Assembly: GCF_011045215.1 (NCBI RefSeq)
Contig: NZ_CP049201.1
Length of the DNA stretch: 64,000 nucleotides
Source of the DNA: Escherichia coli
GTDB taxonomy: Bacteria; Pseudomonadota; Gammaproteobacteria; Enterobacterales; Enterobacteriaceae
Strand: one strand, 5' to 3'
Of the stretch, positions 2 to 62,001 are shown piece after piece; position 1 is the first letter of the stretch; each line of letters starts with the position of its first letter. The translations under genes were made by a program, and so were the position numbers. The notes below the pieces were generated by a model that made no database searches, had not been told where the DNA came from, and saw nothing but the letters and a program-made list of their open reading frames with translations.

Positions 2-733
2 GTCACCGACAGCGTCCATTGCCACGGTTCTGCGACCCTCATCGCCCAGGAAATCCGCCAGACGATTTTCAACGAGCTGCAACTGACGGCGTCTGCGGGC
101 GTGGCACCAGTAAAGTTTCTCGCCAAAATCGCCTCCGACATGAATAAACCCAACGGCCAGTTTGTGATTACGCCGGCAGAAGTTCCGGCATTTTTACAAA
201 CCTTACCACTGGCAAAAATCCCCGGCGTCGGCAAAGTCTCGGCGGCAAAACTGGAAGCGATGGGGCTGCGGACCTGCGGTGATGTACAAAAGTGTGATCT
301 GGTGATGCTGCTTAAACGCTTTGGCAAATTTGGCCGCATTTTGTGGGAGCGTAGTCAGGGGATTGACGAACGCGATGTTAACAGCGAACGGTTGCGAAAA
401 TCCGTCGGCGTGGAACGCACGATGGCGGAAGATATTCATCACTGGTCTGAATGTGAAGCGATTATCGAGCGGCTGTATCCGGAACTTGAACGCCGTCTGG
501 CAAAGGTAAAACCTGATTTACTGATTGCTCGACAGGGGGTGAAATTAAAATTCGACGATTTTCAGCAAACCACCCAGGAGCACGTCTGGCCGCGGCTGAA
601 TAAAGCTGATCTAATCGCCACCGCGCGTAAAACCTGGGATGAACGCCGCGGCGGGCGCGGTGTGCGTCTGGTGGGGCTGCATGTGACGTTGCTGGATCCG
701 CAAATGGAAAGACAACTGGTGCTGGGATTATGA
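2..733 (+). CDS. dinB: DNA polymerase IV, C-terminal part (gene starts upstream of window)
   Basis: Open frame from window edge; translation matches recalled DinB C-terminus ending ERQLVLGL. Confidence 0.85.
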   Translation, partial: VTDSVHCHGSATLIAQEIRQTIFNELQLTASAGVAPVKFLAKIASDMNKPNGQFVITPAEVPAFLQTLPLAKIPGVGKVSAAKLEAMGLRTCGDVQKCDLVMLLKRFGKFGRILWERSQGIDERDVNSERLRKSVGVERTMAEDIHHWSECEAIIERLYPELERRLAKVKPDLLIARQGVKLKFDDFQQTTQEHVWPRLNKADLIATARKTWDERRGGRGVRLVGLHVTLLDPQMERQLVLGL

Positions 734-1182
734 ATAACATACAAATAAGAAACTATCAGCCTGGCGATTTTCAGCAACTATGCGCTATTTTCCTTAGAGC
801 GGTTACGATGACCGCCAGTCAGCATTATTCACCACAACAAATTGCTGCCTGGGCGCAGATTGACGAATCTCGCTGGAAGGAGATACTCGCGAAATCACAA
901 GTGCGGGTTGCAGTCATTAATGCACAACCGGTTGGTTTTATTTCCCGCATTGAACATTATATCGATATGTTATTTGTTGACCCTGAATACACCCGCCGTG
1001 GGGTTGCCAGCGCTTTGTTAAAACCTTTGATTAAGTCTGAATCCGAACTTACGGTGGACGCCAGCATAACCGCAAAACCCTTTTTTGAACGTTATGGTTT
1101 TCAGACAGTTAAGCAGCAGCGCGTTGAATGCCGTGGAGCTTGGTTTACTAATTTTTATATGCGATATAAACCGCAACATTAA
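730..1182 (+). CDS. yafP: GNAT-type acetyltransferase YafP
   Basis: 150 aa ORF, ATGA overlap with dinB stop, matches recalled dinB operon position. Confidence 0.75.
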   Translation: MNNIQIRNYQPGDFQQLCAIFLRAVTMTASQHYSPQQIAAWAQIDESRWKEILAKSQVRVAVINAQPVGFISRIEHYIDMLFVDPEYTRRGVASALLKPLIKSESELTVDASITAKPFFERYGFQTVKQQRVECRGAWFTNFYMRYKPQH

Positions 1183-1415
1183 ATCCAGCTTGCAATGAAA
1201 ATAACGCCCGCCTGGTATGTGCGCGTTTTCTTATTCCACAAACTGCAAGGAGGTAAATCATGACAAATCCTTTATCAATGACTCTTTGCAGACCTTTCCA
1301 GGATTAATTCTTTTTTTCTTGCCCTGGATTCGTCTGCCATTTCCTGATTTTTATATTTATATACTCTAAATAATTCGAGTCGCAGTACATGCAACTTGAA
1401 GTATGACGAGTATAA

Positions 1416-3665: not shown

Positions 3666-3925
3666 GTTAAGTCTCCTTGTCGATCACCCGCAAAACAGTA
3701 TTGCAGGTCACAGGGTTAGCAGAAAATGTTGTCAACACAAGACATGCTTGCGAGATATGTTTGAGAATACCACTTTATCCCGCGTCAGGGAGAGGCAGTG
3801 CGTAAAAAGACGCGGACTCATGTGAAATACTGGTTTTTAGTGCGCCAGATCTCTATAATCTCGCGCAACCTATTTTCCCCTCGAACACTTTTTAAGCCGT
3901 AGATAAACAGGCTGGGACACTTCAC

Positions 3926-4384
3926 ATGAGCGAAAAATACATCGTCACCTGGGACATGTTGCAGATCCATGCACGTAAACTCGCAAGCCGACTGATGCCT
4001 TCTGAACAATGGAAAGGCATTATTGCCGTAAGCCGTGGCGGTCTGGTACCGGGTGCGTTACTGGCGCGTGAACTGGGTATTCGTCATGTCGATACCGTTT
4101 GTATTTCCAGCTACGATCACGACAACCAGCGCGAGCTTAAAGTGCTGAAACGCGCAGAAGGCGATGGCGAAGGCTTCATCGTTATTGATGACCTGGTGGA
4201 TACCGGTGGTACTGCGGTTGCGATTCGTGAAATGTATCCAAAAGCGCACTTTGTCACCATCTTTGCAAAACCGGCTGGTCGTCCGCTGGTTGATGATTAT
4301 GTTGTTGATATCCCGCAAGATACCTGGATCGAACAGCCGTGGGATATGGGCGTCGTATTCGTCCCGCCAATCTCCGGTCGCTAA
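3926..4384 (+). CDS. gpt: Xanthine-guanine phosphoribosyltransferase
   Basis: 152 aa ORF with PRTase motif [11 protein letters not shown]. Confidence 0.9.
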
Positions 4385-4390
4385 TCTTTT

Positions 4391-4423
4391 CAACGCCTGG
4401 CACTGCCGGGCGTTGTTCTTTTT
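4391..4423 (+). terminator. Rho-independent terminator after gpt
   Basis: GC stem CAACGCC...GGCGTTG followed by TTCTTTTT. Confidence 0.5.
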
Positions 4424-4475
4424 AACTTCAGGCAGGTTACAATAGTTTCCAGTAAGTATTCTGGAGGCTGCATCC

Positions 4476-5720
4476 ATGACACAGGCAAACCTGAGCGAAA
4501 CCCTGTTCAAACCCCGCTTTAAACATCCTGAAACCTCGACGCTAGTCCGCCGCTTTAATCACGGCGCACAACCGCCTGTGCAGTCGGCCCTTGATGGTAA
4601 AACCATCCCTCACTGGTATCGCATGATTAACCGTCTGATGTGGATCTGGCGCGGCATTGACCCACGCGAAATCCTCGACGTCCAGGCACGTATTGTGATG
4701 AGCGATGCCGAACGTACCGACGATGATTTATACGATACGGTGATTGGCTACCGTGGCGGCAACTGGATTTATGAGTGGGCCACCCAGGCGATGGAGTGGC
4801 AACAAAAAGCCTGTGCGGAAGAAGATCCGCAACTCAGTGGTCGTCACTGGCTGCATGCGGCTACGTTGTACAACATTGCCGCCTATCCTCATCTGAAAGG
4901 AGATGACCTGGCCGAGCAAGCGCAGGCTTTGTCAAACCGCGCCTATGAAGAGGCCGCTCAGCGTCTACCGGGCACGATGCGGCAGATGGAGTTTACCGTA
5001 CCTGGCGGTGCGCCCATCACCGGCTTTTTGCATATGCCGAAAGGCGATGGCCCGTTCCCGACGGTATTAATGTGTGGTGGTCTGGATGCGATGCAGACGG
5101 ACTATTACAGCCTGTATGAACGTTATTTTGCGCCGCGCGGCATTGCGATGCTGACTATTGATATGCCGTCGGTGGGCTTTTCTTCAAAATGGAAGCTCAC
5201 CCAGGACTCCAGCCTGTTGCATCAGCACGTCTTAAAGGCACTGCCTAACGTACCGTGGGTGGATCACACTCGCGTCGCGGCCTTTGGTTTCCGTTTCGGC
5301 GCTAACGTTGCCGTGCGTCTGGCATACCTTGAATCGCCGCGTCTGAAAGCGGTTGCCTGTCTTGGTCCGGTAGTTCATACCCTGTTGAGTGATTTTAAGT
5401 GCCAGCAACAGGTGCCGGAAATGTATCTTGACGTTCTGGCGAGTCGTTTGGGGATGCATGATGCTTCCGATGAAGCGTTGCGCGTGGAGCTGAATCGCTA
5501 TTCATTAAAAGTGCAAGGATTGCTGGGACGTCGCTGCCCAACGCCAATGTTATCAGGCTACTGGAAGAACGATCCGTTCAGCCCGGAAGAGGACTCACGC
5601 TTAATCACCTCATCATCTCATGACGGTAAATTATTAGAGATCCCATTTAACCCGGTGTATCGGAATTTTGACAAAGGTCTTCAGGAAATCACCGACTGGA
5701 TCGAAAAACGCTTGTGTTAA
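4476..5720 (+). CDS. frsA: Esterase FrsA (fermentation/respiration switch protein)
   Basis: 414 aa ORF, alpha/beta hydrolase-like, conserved gpt-frsA-crl order. Confidence 0.8.
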
Positions 5721-10043: not shown

Positions 10044-10119
10044 GCCGATATAGCTCAGTTGGTAGAGCAGCGCATTCGTAATGCGAAGGTCGTAGGTTCG
10101 ACTCCTATTATCGGCACCA
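10044..10119 (+). tRNA. thrW: tRNA-Thr (anticodon CGT)
   Basis: 76 nt GCCGATATAGCTCAGTTGGTAGAGCAGCGCATTCGTAATGCG...TCGGCACCA with anticodon loop tCGTa. Confidence 0.9.
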
Positions 10120-10133: not shown

Positions 10134-11297
10134 TTACACATCATTAGTACCTTCCTTATTTTTTGACTGGGACAAATTTGGGACCGATGGGTTCAGGATC
10201 GAGTCTATTTGCCGTGCGTGTTCGGTAAGGTGATTAGGTGCAAGGTGAGCATATCGACGAACCATTTCGATAGACTCCCAGCCTCCCATTTCCTGTAACA
10301 CTGACAACGGGACTCCGGCTTGAACCAGCCAACTTGCCCAGGTGTGTCTCAAGTCGTGAAATCTGAAATCATCAATACCAGCCCGTCTCAGCGCCGCTTT
10401 CCAGGCTGTGTTTGCGTCATACCGCATCTTCCTTACTGTTGGCGCTTTCGTTCCGTCTGGTTTGGTACAGCTTTCCTTGTACACAAATACCCAACGGTGA
10501 TGATTCCCGATTTGTTTTTTCAAAACGCGACATGCAGTATCATTCAGCGCAACGCCAATTGCGCGGTTTGATTTACTCTCTTCCGGGTTTATCCATGCCA
10601 CCCGGCGCTGCATGTCTATTTGTTGCCATTCAAGGTTGATGATGTTCGAGCGTCTTAAGCCTGTTGCCAGTGCAAATTCAACAACAGACTTTAATGGCTC
10701 CGGACATTCATCAATCAGCCTTTGTGCTTCATGGGGCTCCAGCCAGCGGATCCGTTTATTCTTTGGTTGAGGCACTTTAATAATTGGTGCCTTATCCAGC
10801 ATTTTCCATTCACGCTCTGCGGCTCTTAGTAGGGCCTTTATAAATGAAAGATGCGTAGCCTTCGTTGCAACGGACGCTGGTTTTGGCGTGTATTCTGGAA
10901 CAGGTTTCCCTTTTTTTCTGCATGCTTCTGCCCTGAGTCTCCAGTTTTCCTCATGACGCCGGTTCGTCATTTTCTGCATTGCTGAATAAATTTTTGATTC
11001 AGTAATGTCTCTTAGTTGCATTCCTGCGAAATGTTGAAGCCAGAATCCGATCCGGCTTTTGTCATCGTCCAGTGATTTTTTATGTGCTTTCTCTTCAAGC
11101 CACCTGACACACGCTTCCTCGAACGTTATATCAGGTATTTCACCAAGTTTGCTGACCCGCCATGCTTCAGCCTTTAGCTTGTCATGGAGTTCTGTCGCCT
11201 GCCTTTTGTCCTTTGTTCCAAGAGACTGTTTAAATCTTTTACCGTTCGGCAATGTGAAACTGGCGTACCATATTTCACCTCTGCGGAAGAGTGACAT
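10134..11297 (-). CDS. Phage integrase (tyrosine recombinase)
   Basis: C-terminal catalytic motif [10 protein letters not shown]...RRYAHL; adjacent to tRNA. Confidence 0.85.
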
Positions 11298-50069: not shown

Positions 50070-50118
50070 ATTCGTAATGCGAAGGTCGTAGGTTCGACTC
50101 CTATTATCGGCACCATTT
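50070..50118. repeat. attR of prophage / attL of downstream element: second copy of 49-bp tRNA-Thr 3-prime segment
   Basis: Exact repeat of 10074-10122. Confidence 0.75.
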
Positions 50119-50280
50119 CAACGTCTTTTCCCGTCTATTAAAATCCAAAAAACCCGCATATACTCTAGCTTTGAGCGCCCCCGATAGTGTTTTAACGTCT
50201 ATCAATATCTCCTAAAATCCACGTCTTTTGGGGGTATATTCGGGGGTATATGCTGTGTGGGCTACTGGAGATACCCCCAA

Positions 50281-51471
50281 ATGAAACTAAATGCCCGTCA
50301 GGTCGATACGGCCAAACCGAAAGAAAAACCCTATAAACTGGCCGATGGTGGTGGGCTTTATCTGCTTGTTAATCCCAATGGTTCCCGGTACTGGCGTTTA
50401 AAGTACCGGGTAGCCGGAAAAGAAAAGCTGTTGGCGCTGGGGGTATATCCCGATGTAACCCTGGCTGATGCCAGGGCGAAACGAGATGAGGCCAAAAGGG
50501 GTATGGCTGGGGGGATCGACCCGAACGAAGCGAAGCGGGAAGAAAAATTGAACCGCGAAGCGCAAATCAAAAACACCTTCGAAGAAATCGCCAGAGAGTG
50601 GCATACAGAACGGCAGAAGAAATGGTCTGAGGGGTACGCCTCGGACATTCTGGAAGCATTCAGTAAAGACATATTCCCTTGGATTGGAAAACGCCCCATC
50701 ACGGAAATAAAGCCCCTTGATTTGCTGAATACGCTTAAACGCATCGAGAATAGGGGAGCGACTGAAAAGGCCCGTAAGGTTCGCCAGTGGTGCGGGGAGG
50801 TCTGGAAGTATGCGATCGTTACCGCCCGCGCAGAATATAACCCCGCCCCTGATCTATCTGTGGCTATGGAAGGACACGAAGGGGAGCACTTCCCCCATCT
50901 GGAAGCCGAAGAGTTACCCGAATTTTTCCAGACGCTGGCGACGGCAAAAAGTAACGTTCAGGTTATTTTGGGGCTGCGTCTGCTTATTCTTGTGGGGTTA
51001 CGTCCGGTTGAATTACGCGCGGCCCCGTGGTCAGAGATTGATTTTGATAATGCCTTGTGGGAGATCCCCAAAGAGCGAATGAAGAAAAGACGTCCGCACG
51101 TTGTCCCGCTTTCTCGCCAGGCTATGGTTATTCTCGGGCAATTAAAAGAGTTGTCGGGCCGCAATCCTTTCATTTTTCCGGGCCGGAACGACCCGCGAAA
51201 GCCAATGAGTGAAGGAGCAATTAATCAGCTAATAAAGCGACTCGGGTATAAGGGCAAAGCTTGCGGGCATGGTTTCCGACATACCATGAGCACAATTTTG
51301 TATGAGAAAGGGTATAACACCGAATGGATCGAAACCCAGCTTGCACATGTTGATAAAAATACCATCCGTGGCACATATAATCATGCCCGCTATCTGGATG
51401 GACGCCGGGAAATGCTTCAATGGTATGCCGACTATATGGAATCGCTGGCGAGTGGCAGGGTAAAAGATTAG
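50281..51471 (+). CDS. P4-type integrase (tyrosine recombinase)
   Basis: N-terminal MKLNARQVDTAKPKEKPYKLADGGGLYL typical of P4-family integrases; catalytic HGFRHT... Confidence 0.85.
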   Translation: MKLNARQVDTAKPKEKPYKLADGGGLYLLVNPNGSRYWRLKYRVAGKEKLLALGVYPDVTLADARAKRDEAKRGMAGGIDPNEAKREEKLNREAQIKNTFEEIAREWHTERQKKWSEGYASDILEAFSKDIFPWIGKRPITEIKPLDLLNTLKRIENRGATEKARKVRQWCGEVWKYAIVTARAEYNPAPDLSVAMEGHEGEHFPHLEAEELPEFFQTLATAKSNVQVILGLRLLILVGLRPVELRAAPWSEIDFDNALWEIPKERMKKRRPHVVPLSRQAMVILGQLKELSGRNPFIFPGRNDPRKPMSEGAINQLIKRLGYKGKACGHGFRHTMSTILYEKGYNTEWIETQLAHVDKNTIRGTYNHARYLDGRREMLQWYADYMESLASGRVKD

Positions 51472-56613: not shown

Positions 56614-59376
56614 TTGTCTTACCCATTAATAAAGGTCATACCGATGCAAGGTAAAAAAGTTTCACAGACAGCAGGACGCGCGGCGGGCCAGTGGGAAAAT
56701 ATTCTTGAACACCTGGGGATTACTGTTCCTGCGGGTGGTCTTCATGGCCCCTGCCCGATCTGCGGCGGTAAAGATCGTTTTCGCTTTGATAATAAAAAAG
56801 GGCGTGGAACCTGGTTCTGCAACCAGTGCGGCCACGGTGACGGGCTGGATCTGGTCAAACTGGCGCTTTCGCTGGACACCGGGCCAGCCGCTGATCGAGT
56901 TGCTGAATTACTTCCGGCCCTTCCTCCGCCTGCGGTCATGCAGCCTGCCAGAAAAGAAGCCAGTGACGAAGGTCGCCCACATGACTACTGGCAACGCCTC
57001 TTTGCCCGTACTCAGCCGGGGGAAAGCCCTTACCTTACGGCGCGGGGGCTGACAGGTTTTGAACTGCCGCTGACCGTTCAGGAGATGAAAACCGCTGGCG
57101 GTGTTTTTCCGGCTGGTTCGCTTTTATTACCGATCACGGACACCGAAGGACGGATGACCGGTGCACAGCTTATCGGCCCGGACAAGGTAAAAGGCTTATG
57201 TGCTGGCACCAGGAAAAAAGGGCGTTTTATCTCTGTCGGGCCGTTCCCGGAGAAAATGCCCGCGCGGATCATTATCTCGGAAGGCTTTGCCACTGCGTTA
57301 AGCGCATCCCTGCTTTCAGAGGGCTGGAGTATTGCGGCGCTGGATAAAGGCAACCTGAAAGACGTTGCGGAGCAAATCCGCCAGAAATGGCCGGACGTGC
57401 AGATCGTTATTGCCGGTGATAATGACTTTTCTGACGGTAAACCCAATCAGGGGAAAGAGTCTGCGATCAAAGCTGCACTGGCCGTTAAGGGATGGATGAC
57501 CATTCCTCCCGGACGGATCAAAGTTGACTGGGATGATTACCGCCGTGAATTTGGCCTCCAGCGCGCCCGTGACGCATTCGCGGAAGAACTGCTTAACCCG
57601 GCAGACACCGAAACGCGTTTACCGCATGGTTTCCGCCTGACGAAGGATTATCTTTGGTTTGATCGCCCGCTCAGTGACGGTAGCGAAAGCGGCCAGACTC
57701 GCCAGGTGAAGATATGTAGCCCGCTCAAAGTGACGGCCATCACCAGCGACGGCGAAGGCGGTAAATTCGGGCGTCTGCTTGAGTGGGAAGACTCCAGCGG
57801 ATTACGGCATGAATGGGCGATGCCAATGACAGTGCTTGCCGGAAGCGGTCAGGAGCTGCGGGAGGTTCTGCTTGATAACGGAATGCACTTTATCAGCGTG
57901 AACGGCGCGGCGCGTAGCTATCTGATGGAATACATTTCTAACTGTCGCCCGGTTCGCCGCGTCACCTGCGTTGAAAAAACAGGCTGGTTTAGCGGTGCGT
58001 ATGTTCTCCAGGATGAGGTGATCGGCAGCGATGCCGGATCGGTCATCCTCCAGTCTGCTATGTCGTCTAAAAATGACTTCCGGGTGAGCGGAACGGTGGC
58101 GGAATGGGCGCAACACGTCGGGCGCTATTGTGCCGGAAATTCCCGCCTGGTGTTCTGCGTCAGTCTGGCGCTGGCCGCGCCGTTACTGAATATTATTGGT
58201 GTTGGCGGCGGCGGTTATCACCTTAAGGGCGAATCCACGGACGGCAAGACAACCACAATGAAGGTAGCGGCGTCTGTCTGCGGCGGGCCTGATTTCTGGA
58301 AAACGTGGCGGGCAACCGGAAACGCGCTGGAAGGTATTGCGCTACGCCGTAATGATGCCGCCCTGATGCTGGATGAAATCAGCGAAGTTGACGGCAGAGA
58401 GGCTAGCCGGATCGCCTATATGCTGGGGAACGGGCAGGGCAAAGCAAGGGGGCGCGTTGATGGCAGCGTCCGCGATCCGGTGACCTGGACATTGCTTTAC
58501 CTGTCCACCGGGGAAATCTCTATTGCGGAACATGCCGCCGAAGCCGGAGAAAAGCGAACCGGCGCGGGTGTCGGTGTGCGTATGGTGCAAATCCCCAGCG
58601 ATACCGGAAAACATGGCGCTTTCGAAAATCTCCACGGCATGGAAGGCGGTAAAGCGTTTGCGGAATACCTTGAACAGACCTGTAAACAATATTACGGCGC
58701 GCCGTTCCGCGAATGGTTGCGCTGGCTGGCGGCAAATCTGACGGAAACCGCGAACCGGGCGCGGGCAATGAAAAAAGAGTATGAACGGACATTATTACCC
58801 GAAGATTCCGGCAAGCAGGTTGGGCGCATTGTGGATCGCTTTGCACTGTTGGCCGTTGCGGGGGAACTGGCGAGTGAAGCGGGGATCACAGGCTGGCAAC
58901 CAGGAGAAGCGTATAACGCTGCAAGAAGCTGTCTGGCGGCATGGCTTAACGATCGTGGACATGCGGCCAACCAGGAAGAAGCCGACGCGCTGGAGAAGGT
59001 GCGGCGCTTTATTACGGCCAATCAGTACACACGCTTTGCTGACTGGTATGACGAGAAAAACCGCCCGTCAAATATGGTTGGCTTTCGCCGGGTGGAGAAA
59101 GGCGGGAACGGTATTGGCATGAGCAAAAAGGAGAACAGCGGCGATACTGTTAAAGACGGGGACGCCACTAAAGAGCCGGAAACCACATTTTATATCCTGC
59201 CCAGCGGATGGAAGGAAATTTGCGGGACGTCGGACAGCGTTAAAACGGCGAGACTATGCGACGAGGCTGGATGGCTTGTAAAGGATGAAGATCGCCAGCG
59301 CCTACAACGTACAGTAAGACTACCGGAAATTGGCTTAAAGAAAGTGTATGTGTTCAGCGGCGAAGTGATCGGATAA
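56614..59376 (+). CDS. P4 alpha-like primase-helicase
   Basis: Zinc-binding CPICGG...CNQCGHGDG, TOPRIM-like IISEGFATA...AGDND, P-loop GESTDGKTT. Confidence 0.8.
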   Translation: MSYPLIKVIPMQGKKVSQTAGRAAGQWENILEHLGITVPAGGLHGPCPICGGKDRFRFDNKKGRGTWFCNQCGHGDGLDLVKLALSLDTGPAADRVAELLPALPPPAVMQPARKEASDEGRPHDYWQRLFARTQPGESPYLTARGLTGFELPLTVQEMKTAGGVFPAGSLLLPITDTEGRMTGAQLIGPDKVKGLCAGTRKKGRFISVGPFPEKMPARIIISEGFATALSASLLSEGWSIAALDKGNLKDVAEQIRQKWPDVQIVIAGDNDFSDGKPNQGKESAIKAALAVKGWMTIPPGRIKVDWDDYRREFGLQRARDAFAEELLNPADTETRLPHGFRLTKDYLWFDRPLSDGSESGQTRQVKICSPLKVTAITSDGEGGKFGRLLEWEDSSGLRHEWAMPMTVLAGSGQELREVLLDNGMHFISVNGAARSYLMEYISNCRPVRRVTCVEKTGWFSGAYVLQDEVIGSDAGSVILQSAMSSKNDFRVSGTVAEWAQHVGRYCAGNSRLVFCVSLALAAPLLNIIGVGGGGYHLKGESTDGKTTTMKVAASVCGGPDFWKTWRATGNALEGIALRRNDAALMLDEISEVDGREASRIAYMLGNGQGKARGRVDGSVRDPVTWTLLYLSTGEISIAEHAAEAGEKRTGAGVGVRMVQIPSDTGKHGAFENLHGMEGGKAFAEYLEQTCKQYYGAPFREWLRWLAANLTETANRARAMKKEYERTLLPEDSGKQVGRIVDRFALLAVAGELASEAGITGWQPGEAYNAARSCLAAWLNDRGHAANQEEADALEKVRRFITANQYTRFADWYDEKNRPSNMVGFRRVEKGGNGIGMSKKENSGDTVKDGDATKEPETTFYILPSGWKEICGTSDSVKTARLCDEAGWLVKDEDRQRLQRTVRLPEIGLKKVYVFSGEVIG

Positions 59377-61495: not shown

Positions 61496-61741
61496 ATGCA
61501 ACACGTAAACTATACCGATGCTCGACAGCATTTAGCTGACCTGATGCAGCAGGCTAATGATGATCGTGCGCCAATCCTGGTTACGCGTAAGGGTGCTAAA
61601 AGCGTAGTAATGATCGATGCGGAAGAGTTCGCATCGATTCAGGAAACGTTACACCTGTTCAGTAACCCGGCGAACGCCGCACACATTGAAGCCAGCCTTG
61701 CATCGCTCGAACGCGGCGATTATGAGGAACTGGACATTTAA
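61496..61741 (+). CDS. YefM/Phd-family antitoxin
   Basis: 81 aa; ATGA overlap with toxin gene. Confidence 0.7.
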   Translation: MQHVNYTDARQHLADLMQQANDDRAPILVTRKGAKSVVMIDAEEFASIQETLHLFSNPANAAHIEASLASLERGDYEELDI

Positions 61742-62001
61742 TGAAAGTCAGGATATCCCCGCAGGCAAAAGGCGATCTTCAGTACTGGGCTGAGAATGAC
61801 CCAAAGACGTATAACAAGGTAATGGAGCTAATCAAATCGGCTAAGGAAAGCCCCTTCAAGGGGATAGGGAAGCCGGAGGCGCTAAAGCATCGTAAGCCGC
61901 TTTGGTCACGTCGAATCACGAAAGAACATCGCCTGGTGTATTACGTTGAGCAAGGCGATCTGTACATTGTTGCGTGTCGCTATCACTACACCACGATTTA
62001 A
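61741..62001 (+). CDS. YoeB/Txe-family toxin (mRNA interferase)
   Basis: KGKPE.LKH...WSRRIT.EHRLVY...ACRYHY motif. Confidence 0.75.
   Translation: MKVRISPQAKGDLQYWAENDPKTYNKVMELIKSAKESPFKGIGKPEALKHRKPLWSRRITKEHRLVYYVEQGDLYIVACRYHYTTI

Follow-up and report, generated by a model that had tools for sequence, protein, structure and literature searches.

The dinB–yafP junction of an Escherichia coli chromosome: a two-gene operon allele without yafNO

In Escherichia coli K-12, dinB belongs to a four-gene operon, dinB–yafN–yafO–yafP (McKenzie et al. 2003; Singletary et al. 2009, as cited in Gutierrez et al. 2011, PMC3105422). In the stretch of E. coli DNA analyzed here (64,000 nucleotides, hereafter "the window"), dinB runs directly into yafP, which raises the question of whether this junction is peculiar to the strain, whether it arose through the loss of yafNO or represents a state that preceded their arrival, and how YafP would be translated from it.

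The two-gene junction and its frequency

The window enters dinB at codon 109, the first 108 codons, the promoter, and the LexA box lying upstream of it. From there, an open reading frame at 2–733 (+ strand) encodes 243 residues with 100% identity to residues 109–351 of K-12 DinB; this 3' part of the DNA polymerase IV gene is intact, and the residues end in ...ERQLVLGL, with the TGA stop at 731–733. Open frame and protein identity are here joined by Pfam matches to IMS (PF00817, C-terminal part), PF11798, PF21999, and IMS_C (PF11799), and the features of a Y-family polymerase IV are all represented, namely the IMS catalytic, HHH (IMS_HHH), and little-finger (IMS_C) domains as well as the C-terminal QLVLGL hexapeptide, the β-clamp-binding motif of DinB. 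In the −1 frame relative to dinB, positions 730–1182 (+ strand) hold an intact and complete yafP, encoding a 150-aa GNAT-family N-acetyltransferase. This assignment draws on the open reading frame, on Pfam (PF13673, Acetyltransf_10, E = 5.8e-19, with PF13508 and PF00583 also above their cut-offs), on the acetyl-CoA-binding motif region of GNAT enzymes that is visible in the translation (...RRGVASALL...), on tblastn against relatives, in which 140 of 150 residues are identical to K-12-type YafP, and on the RefSeq annotation of close relatives, where the same gene is named yafP.

Read directly, positions 721–740 of the window are GGATTATGAATAACAT. The dinB stop (731–733) and the yafP start (ATG, 730–732) share the four nucleotides ATGA at 730–733, themselves the end of a single ATTATGA copy at 727–733 (+ strand) that holds both signals, so that no gene intervenes between the two and the 4-nt overlap that marks the two-gene allele is present. 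Chance is no issue for such a junction because it is a discrete structural state. Neither tblastn with K-12 YafN and YafO nor blastn with a 755-bp yafNO segment found either gene anywhere in the 64 kb (best E 0.46), and an adjacent yafN and yafO, as expected of the YafNO type II toxin–antitoxin system, is accordingly lacking in the window. The initial annotation, which had noticed the ATGA overlap of the dinB stop and yafP start without intervening genes and had concluded that the yafN–yafO pair was absent, is thus borne out on both points.

In the K-12 locus, dinB stops at locus position 3733 and is followed by yafN (3785–4078), yafO (4081–4479), and yafP (4489–4941). The two ATGA anchors are 759 bp apart in K-12 versus 0 bp in the window, and what the window lacks is exactly these 759 bp between the same two ATGA positions: the dinB–yafN spacer, yafN, yafO, the 9-nt yafO–yafP spacer, and one copy of ATTATGA. 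Indeed, in four-gene strains this 7-bp sequence flanks yafN–yafO as a direct repeat, of which the window retains one copy. At the end of K-12 dinB, GGGATTATGA is followed by TGTATAC (in a longer reading, ...CTGGGATTATGA followed by TGTATACTATT...), and at the start of yafP, ...TTATATTATGA is followed by ATAACAT (in a longer reading, ...TTTGAATTTATATTATGA followed by ATAACATACAA...). Across the 19 loci of the comparison (8 four-gene loci, 9 two-gene loci including the window, and 2 with yafO deleted), ATTATGA bounds the 759-bp interval in all 8 four-gene loci (K-12, O157:H7, MLI104K1, DETEC-P793, TUM10828, A30, the GTDB E. coli representative, and E. whittamii), and the junction GGGATTATGAATAACAT is identical in 9/9 two-gene sequences, that is, in the window and 8 comparison loci (PapM-32-1, PT62, O145 RM9872, SE11, CFT073, BY68, VE-V11-M, and Escherichia sp. 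MOD1-EC7003). Where Gutierrez et al. (2011) described recombination between two ATGA sequences (PMC3105422), the repeat at the indel is therefore 7 bp long and not just ATGA, a small refinement of their account.

The junction is by no means peculiar to the strain of the window, since it is one of two common, already published alleles. An 86-bp probe across the window junction, a match to which cannot bridge the 759-bp insertion, found the contiguous two-gene form in 2,568 of 5,426 complete E. coli genomes (47%), among them SE11 (phylogroup B1), O104:H4, and CFT073 (B2). The yafNO segment, queried with the K-12 sequence, was found in 2,847 of the 5,426 (2,831 at 80% coverage or more); both classes together account for 5,415 genomes, and partial yafNO occurs in at most 16. 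On this basis, the reference arrangement given in the initial annotation, dinB–yafN–yafO–yafP, holds for K-12 and for some 52% of complete genomes, the alternative that the reference would itself be dinB–yafP fails for K-12, whose operon has four genes, and the screen of related strains that had been proposed yields two common alleles.

These frequencies are close to the published ones: Gutierrez, Elez, Clermont, Denamur, and Matic (2011, NAR 39:4192; PMC3105422) described the two-gene operon in 40–50% of strains (40% of 98 genomes and 50% of ECOR strains, the ECOR junctions being checked by PCR and sequencing) as "always fused with ATGA overlap," with phylogroup A mostly four-gene, B1 all two-gene, and B2 and D mixed. 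The same authors found E. fergusonii to be four-gene and thought three or more losses of yafNO probable (PMC3105422), when Fraikin, Goormaghtigh, and Van Melderen (2020, J Bacteriol; PMC7167474) presented the same polymorphism as an insertion of yafNO into an undisturbed dinB–yafP bicistron. The two-gene allele has thus been known since 2011, and the debate concerns only the direction of the event. With regard to the explanation as a whole, we are highly confident that the window carries a natural two-gene dinB–yafP allele, from which yafNO would have been lost by scarless deletion at ATTATGA and in which YafP would be translationally coupled; the separate parts of this explanation are weighed below.

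Deletion or insertion of yafNO

The two-gene allele would arise if replication slippage or microhomology-mediated recombination at the two ATTATGA copies deleted the DNA between them without a scar; neither YafP nor DinB, with its QLVLGL C-terminus, would be altered, and the dinB stop would come to lie on the yafP start (AUGA). From the sequence comparisons, we lean toward such a deletion, probably having occurred more than once, over an ancestral site that was empty from the outset. The latter reading, which we regard as possible but rather doubtful, takes dinB–yafP as the original bicistron and yafNO as a mobile toxin–antitoxin cassette that would have inserted once, duplicated ATTATGA, and spread between lineages, the lineage of the window either never having had yafNO or having regained the empty allele by homologous recombination. 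It is the published view (Fraikin et al. 2020, PMC7167474), and it has the merit that target duplication automatically yields a 7-bp repeat that lies precisely at either edge of the cassette and restores the stop of dinB as well as the start of yafP, when such a repeat must otherwise be a coincidence. The occurrence of the two-gene form in MOD1-EC7003, a separate Escherichia species-level lineage, also speaks for it. However, no transposase, integrase, or att-like feature lies beside yafNO, and the four-gene form is found in E. whittamii and, according to Gutierrez et al. (2011), in E. fergusonii (PMC3105422).

The divergence of the cassette cuts both ways. In seven strains with four genes, divergence is 2.6% over the yafNO segment, about half that of its flanks (4.9% and 5.4%), as would be expected of a latecomer. 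At 4-fold degenerate sites (pooled pairs of the small sample of seven loci L002, L007, L008, L009, L010, L014, and L016), divergence amounts to 0.157 in the 3' part of dinB, 0.154 in yafP, 0.129 in yafN, and 0.046 in yafO. The value for yafO, against about 0.155 for the flanking genes, would fit a recent spread, but that of yafN is near those of the flanks, and an old four-gene state is favored because yafN seems to have diverged together with its flanks, including in E. whittamii. The low divergence of yafO could instead reflect constraint on its mRNA, a recent sweep, recombination, or the noise of a small sample.

Base composition was considered as a sign of insertion and set aside: G+C is 42.2% in yafN and 43.6% in yafO versus 54.2% in dinB, but yafP, at 43.3%, is as AT-rich as they are, so that low G+C does not discriminate between the two directions and cannot mark yafNO as a newcomer. 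The low G+C common to yafN, yafO, and yafP rather suggests that the three genes arrived as a block, which counts against an empty dinB–yafP site.

Further evidence comes from a third allele, dinB–yafN–yafP, in which a second and independent deletion, of 379 bp, has removed yafO, as found in Escherichia sp. E1V33 (locus L013, 3614–4015) and in E. coli GPT24-02 (locus L019, about 2330–2375). The junction of this deletion shows TTAT microhomology, and the 10-codon yafO remnant, MRVFKTKLIL, ends with its TGA on the yafP ATG, again as ATGA. Deletions between short repeats therefore do occur at the dinB–yafP locus, which weakens the case for an empty ancestral site.

The flanking haplotypes point in the same direction. 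Three haplotypes at 33–39 nt upstream of the indel (CTGGATCCG, CTTGACCCG, and CTTGACCCT) each occur in both two-gene and four-gene genomes, and both alleles of an A/G SNP 21 nt downstream of the indel are found in both indel states. Such a four-gamete pattern can be had only if the indel arose repeatedly or if recombination broke the sequence within tens of bases, and short-tract recombination could account for the shared haplotypes in place of recurrent deletion. As for the window itself, over 1 kb centered on the junction it is most similar to genomes of the four-gene type, with 99.1% identity to A30 and 98.5% to the K-12 group, which speaks against a lineage that never had yafNO, and the yafP of A30 differs from that of the window only at the three positions (793, 846, and 884) that belong to the window's own lineage. 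An outgroup scan with YafP, in one genome per species, returned only four Escherichia loci and an unrelated planctomycete GNAT protein (35% identity); the same scan did not recover E. fergusonii, E. albertii, or E. marmotae, and it provides no polarity deeper than Escherichia.

The two directions are not mutually exclusive, as the ATTATGA repeat could have been left behind when yafNO first inserted, in a deeper ancestor. Going beyond the deletion favored here, one may tentatively, and with no great expectation, regard the ATTATGA pair as a recurrent site of scarless excision. In the window, a phylogroup-A-like four-gene haplotype would then have lost yafNO independently and fairly recently, the locus would toggle across Escherichia between the four-gene, the yafO-deleted three-gene, and the two-gene states, and selection would always keep an upstream stop at the yafP AUG or directly beside it; the scarcity of synonymous differences in yafO (0.046) might, for its part, betoken a separate constraint or sweep. 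If this were true, the locus would offer a natural system in which to measure the rate and the selective value of losing a chromosomal toxin–antitoxin pair. In any case, the choice between deletion and insertion concerns the species as a whole and not the window alone.

Transcription and translation of yafP

Pol IV and YafP would be made from one mRNA, transcribed from the dinB promoter, under LexA and RpoS control, upstream of the window. When the window junction and the K-12 operon were scanned for promoter consensus sequences, promoter-like matches did not exceed those expected from shuffled sequence. Just 3' of yafP, RNA folding of positions 1183–1262 gives a hairpin at 1203–1240 (+ strand; ACGCCCGCC...GCGCGT, then TTTTCTTATT), and this hairpin and its T-run are conserved in K-12, A30, and SE11. 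A simple terminator scan did not report it; judged from the fold and the T-run, it probably closes the operon as an intrinsic terminator.

As regards translation, pairing of the 22 nt upstream of yafP with the anti-Shine–Dalgarno sequence reaches −5.1 kcal/mol in the window, a value attained by 27% of random 22-mers of the window, and +0.4 kcal/mol in K-12; among comparison genes, crl, pepD, frsA, and proA lie between −7.4 and −9.9 kcal/mol, and gpt at only −4.8. In either allele, yafP thus appears to be devoid of a clear Shine–Dalgarno sequence, although the weak GGUG/GGGA pairing may act as a poor one. An upstream reading frame, meanwhile, always ends close by: in K-12, the yafO stop lies 9 nt upstream of the yafP AUG, and in the window, as in the yafO-deleted allele, the upstream frame stops on the AUG itself. 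In the yafP frame, the nearest stop before the junction is at 640, and the 90 nt that separate the two contain no slippery heptamer of the X XXY YYZ type. No gene overlap is commoner in E. coli operons than ATGA, a classic setting of translational coupling (cf. Gutierrez et al. 2011, PMC3105422). Because yafP has no recognizable Shine–Dalgarno sequence in either allele and no slippery site precedes it, YafP is most likely made by termination–reinitiation coupling at AUGA and not by frameshifting: ribosomes finishing dinB (in the window) or yafO (in K-12) would restart at the adjacent yafP AUG.

A programmed −1 frameshift at the end of dinB, producing a DinB–YafP fusion or a frameshift-dependent initiation, was the explanation offered by the authors who studied the CFT073 allele and who proposed "translational frameshifting" together with a downstream box for YafP (Gutierrez et al. 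2011, PMC3105422). It would suit a gene that lies in the −1 frame relative to dinB and has no strong Shine–Dalgarno sequence, but, besides the missing heptamer and the usual role of ATGA overlaps, the yafP gene keeps its own AUG in all alleles, including K-12, where it is 9 nt from yafO, and we therefore deem frameshifting very improbable. Lastly, an artefact of assembly or sequencing, by which a 759-bp segment between short repeats might in principle have collapsed in the window, has nothing specific to commend it and a negligible probability, given that the same junction recurs in 2,568 independent complete genomes, that PCR and sequencing of ECOR strains agree with it (PMC3105422), and that an assembler would not be misled by a repeat of as little as 7 bp.

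Neighborhood, consequences, and comparison with known operons

Several features of the surrounding DNA deserve mention in their own right. Positions 532, 550, 846, and 884 carry SNPs private to the window, absent from all 12 loci compared base by base, the last of which changes K52 of YafP to I, and over its first 12 kb, none of the 5,426 complete E. coli genomes matches the window at more than 99.0% identity. Between yafP and rtcB', K-12 and A30 have a 72-bp element, AGTTGCAGGAAGGCGACAAGCGAGTGAATCGCCAGGAGCTTACATAAGTAAGTGACTGGGGTGAACGAACGC, that is absent from the window (at about 1377–1378) and from SE11, and that resembles the ERIC/IRU intergenic repeat. There follows an rtcB'–'prfH fusion pseudogene (1416–2151), made of an N-terminal fragment of rtcB (88-aa ORF, 1416–1682) and a C-terminal fragment of prfH with the RF-1 domain (1594–2151); its internal deletion matches that of the K-12 pseudogene pair, when rtcB–prfH of SE11 and CFT073 is intact and about 1 kb longer. 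The genes beyond it, pepD, gpt, frsA, crl, phoE, proBA, and thrW, stand in the order of a standard E. coli neighborhood.

The last 22 nt of thrW, a tRNA-Thr(CGU) gene at 10044–10119, are repeated exactly at 50094–50115 and thereby bracket a prophage of about 40 kb (10044–50115), with its integrase at 10134–11297 (− strand). Its early and immunity regions are 97% identical to those of Shigella phages SfIV, SfV, and SfII, and its morphogenesis genes are most like those of Escherichia phage vB_EcoM-720R4. Directly after the prophage attR, a second integrase (50257–51471, + strand) opens a segment that extends to about 61100 and whose genes, as named in a similar region of E. coli JNEC-KY203, include a P2-family major capsid protein, an Icd-like protein, a derepression protein, a DUF927 protein (920 aa, 56614–59376), and an Ogr/Delta-like protein; from 50257 to about 61100, the window thus looks like it carries a P4-like satellite integrated in tandem at thrW. 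A pair of small ORFs further on (61496–61741 and 61741–62001) may correspond to the Phd/YefM–YoeB pair annotated there in JNEC-KY203.

With its two-gene allele, the strain would be deprived of the ribosome-dependent mRNA interferase YafO and of its antitoxin YafN, with DinB and YafP unchanged, and the synthesis of YafP would be tied directly to the translation of dinB. YafP modulates the toxicity and mutagenicity of nitroaromatic compounds. Beyond correct annotation this matters little: the chromosome has one type II toxin–antitoxin pair fewer and a bicistron of the CFT073 type. As a phylogenetic marker the allele nonetheless has its use, and it shows again that the dinB operon of K-12 should not be taken as typical of the species; of mild interest, too, are the 7-bp repeat, the evidence of recurrence, the low synonymous divergence of yafO, and the third allele, in which the ATGA coupling is kept.

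Among known systems, the closest counterpart is the two-gene operon of CFT073, which has the same junction (CTGGGATTATGAATAACAT) with the same ATGA overlap, likewise lacks yafN and yafO, has dinB and yafP intact, and occupies the same genomic position, between lafU and rtcB/prfH–pepD. In this strain, which was chosen for its two-gene operon, a YafP–YFP fusion was made in stationary phase and after mitomycin C, under SOS control (Gutierrez et al. 2011, PMC3105422). The window and CFT073 differ at 29 of 733 nt in the 3' part of dinB and at 22 of 453 nt in yafP, all of them allelic SNPs, among which is the private K52I of the window. The flanks of the window are nearest to phylogroup-A-like four-gene alleles, and, downstream, the window has the K-12-type fused rtcB–prfH pseudogene where CFT073 has an intact pair.

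With the four-gene operon of K-12, the window shares dinB (DinB residues 109–351 at 100%), yafP, the neighborhood, and the rtcB'–'prfH pseudogene fusion, but not the 759 bp that hold the YafN antitoxin, the YafO mRNA interferase, and the second ATTATGA, so that the yafP start adjoins the yafO stop in K-12 and the dinB stop in the window. Finally, going by its published description, the polymorphism between relA–mazEF–mazG and relA–mazG (Fraikin et al. 2020, PMC7167474) is of the same kind: a type II toxin–antitoxin pair lies between two host cistrons, which form an undisturbed bicistron where the pair is missing, albeit at another locus and with a toxin–antitoxin family other than yafNO.
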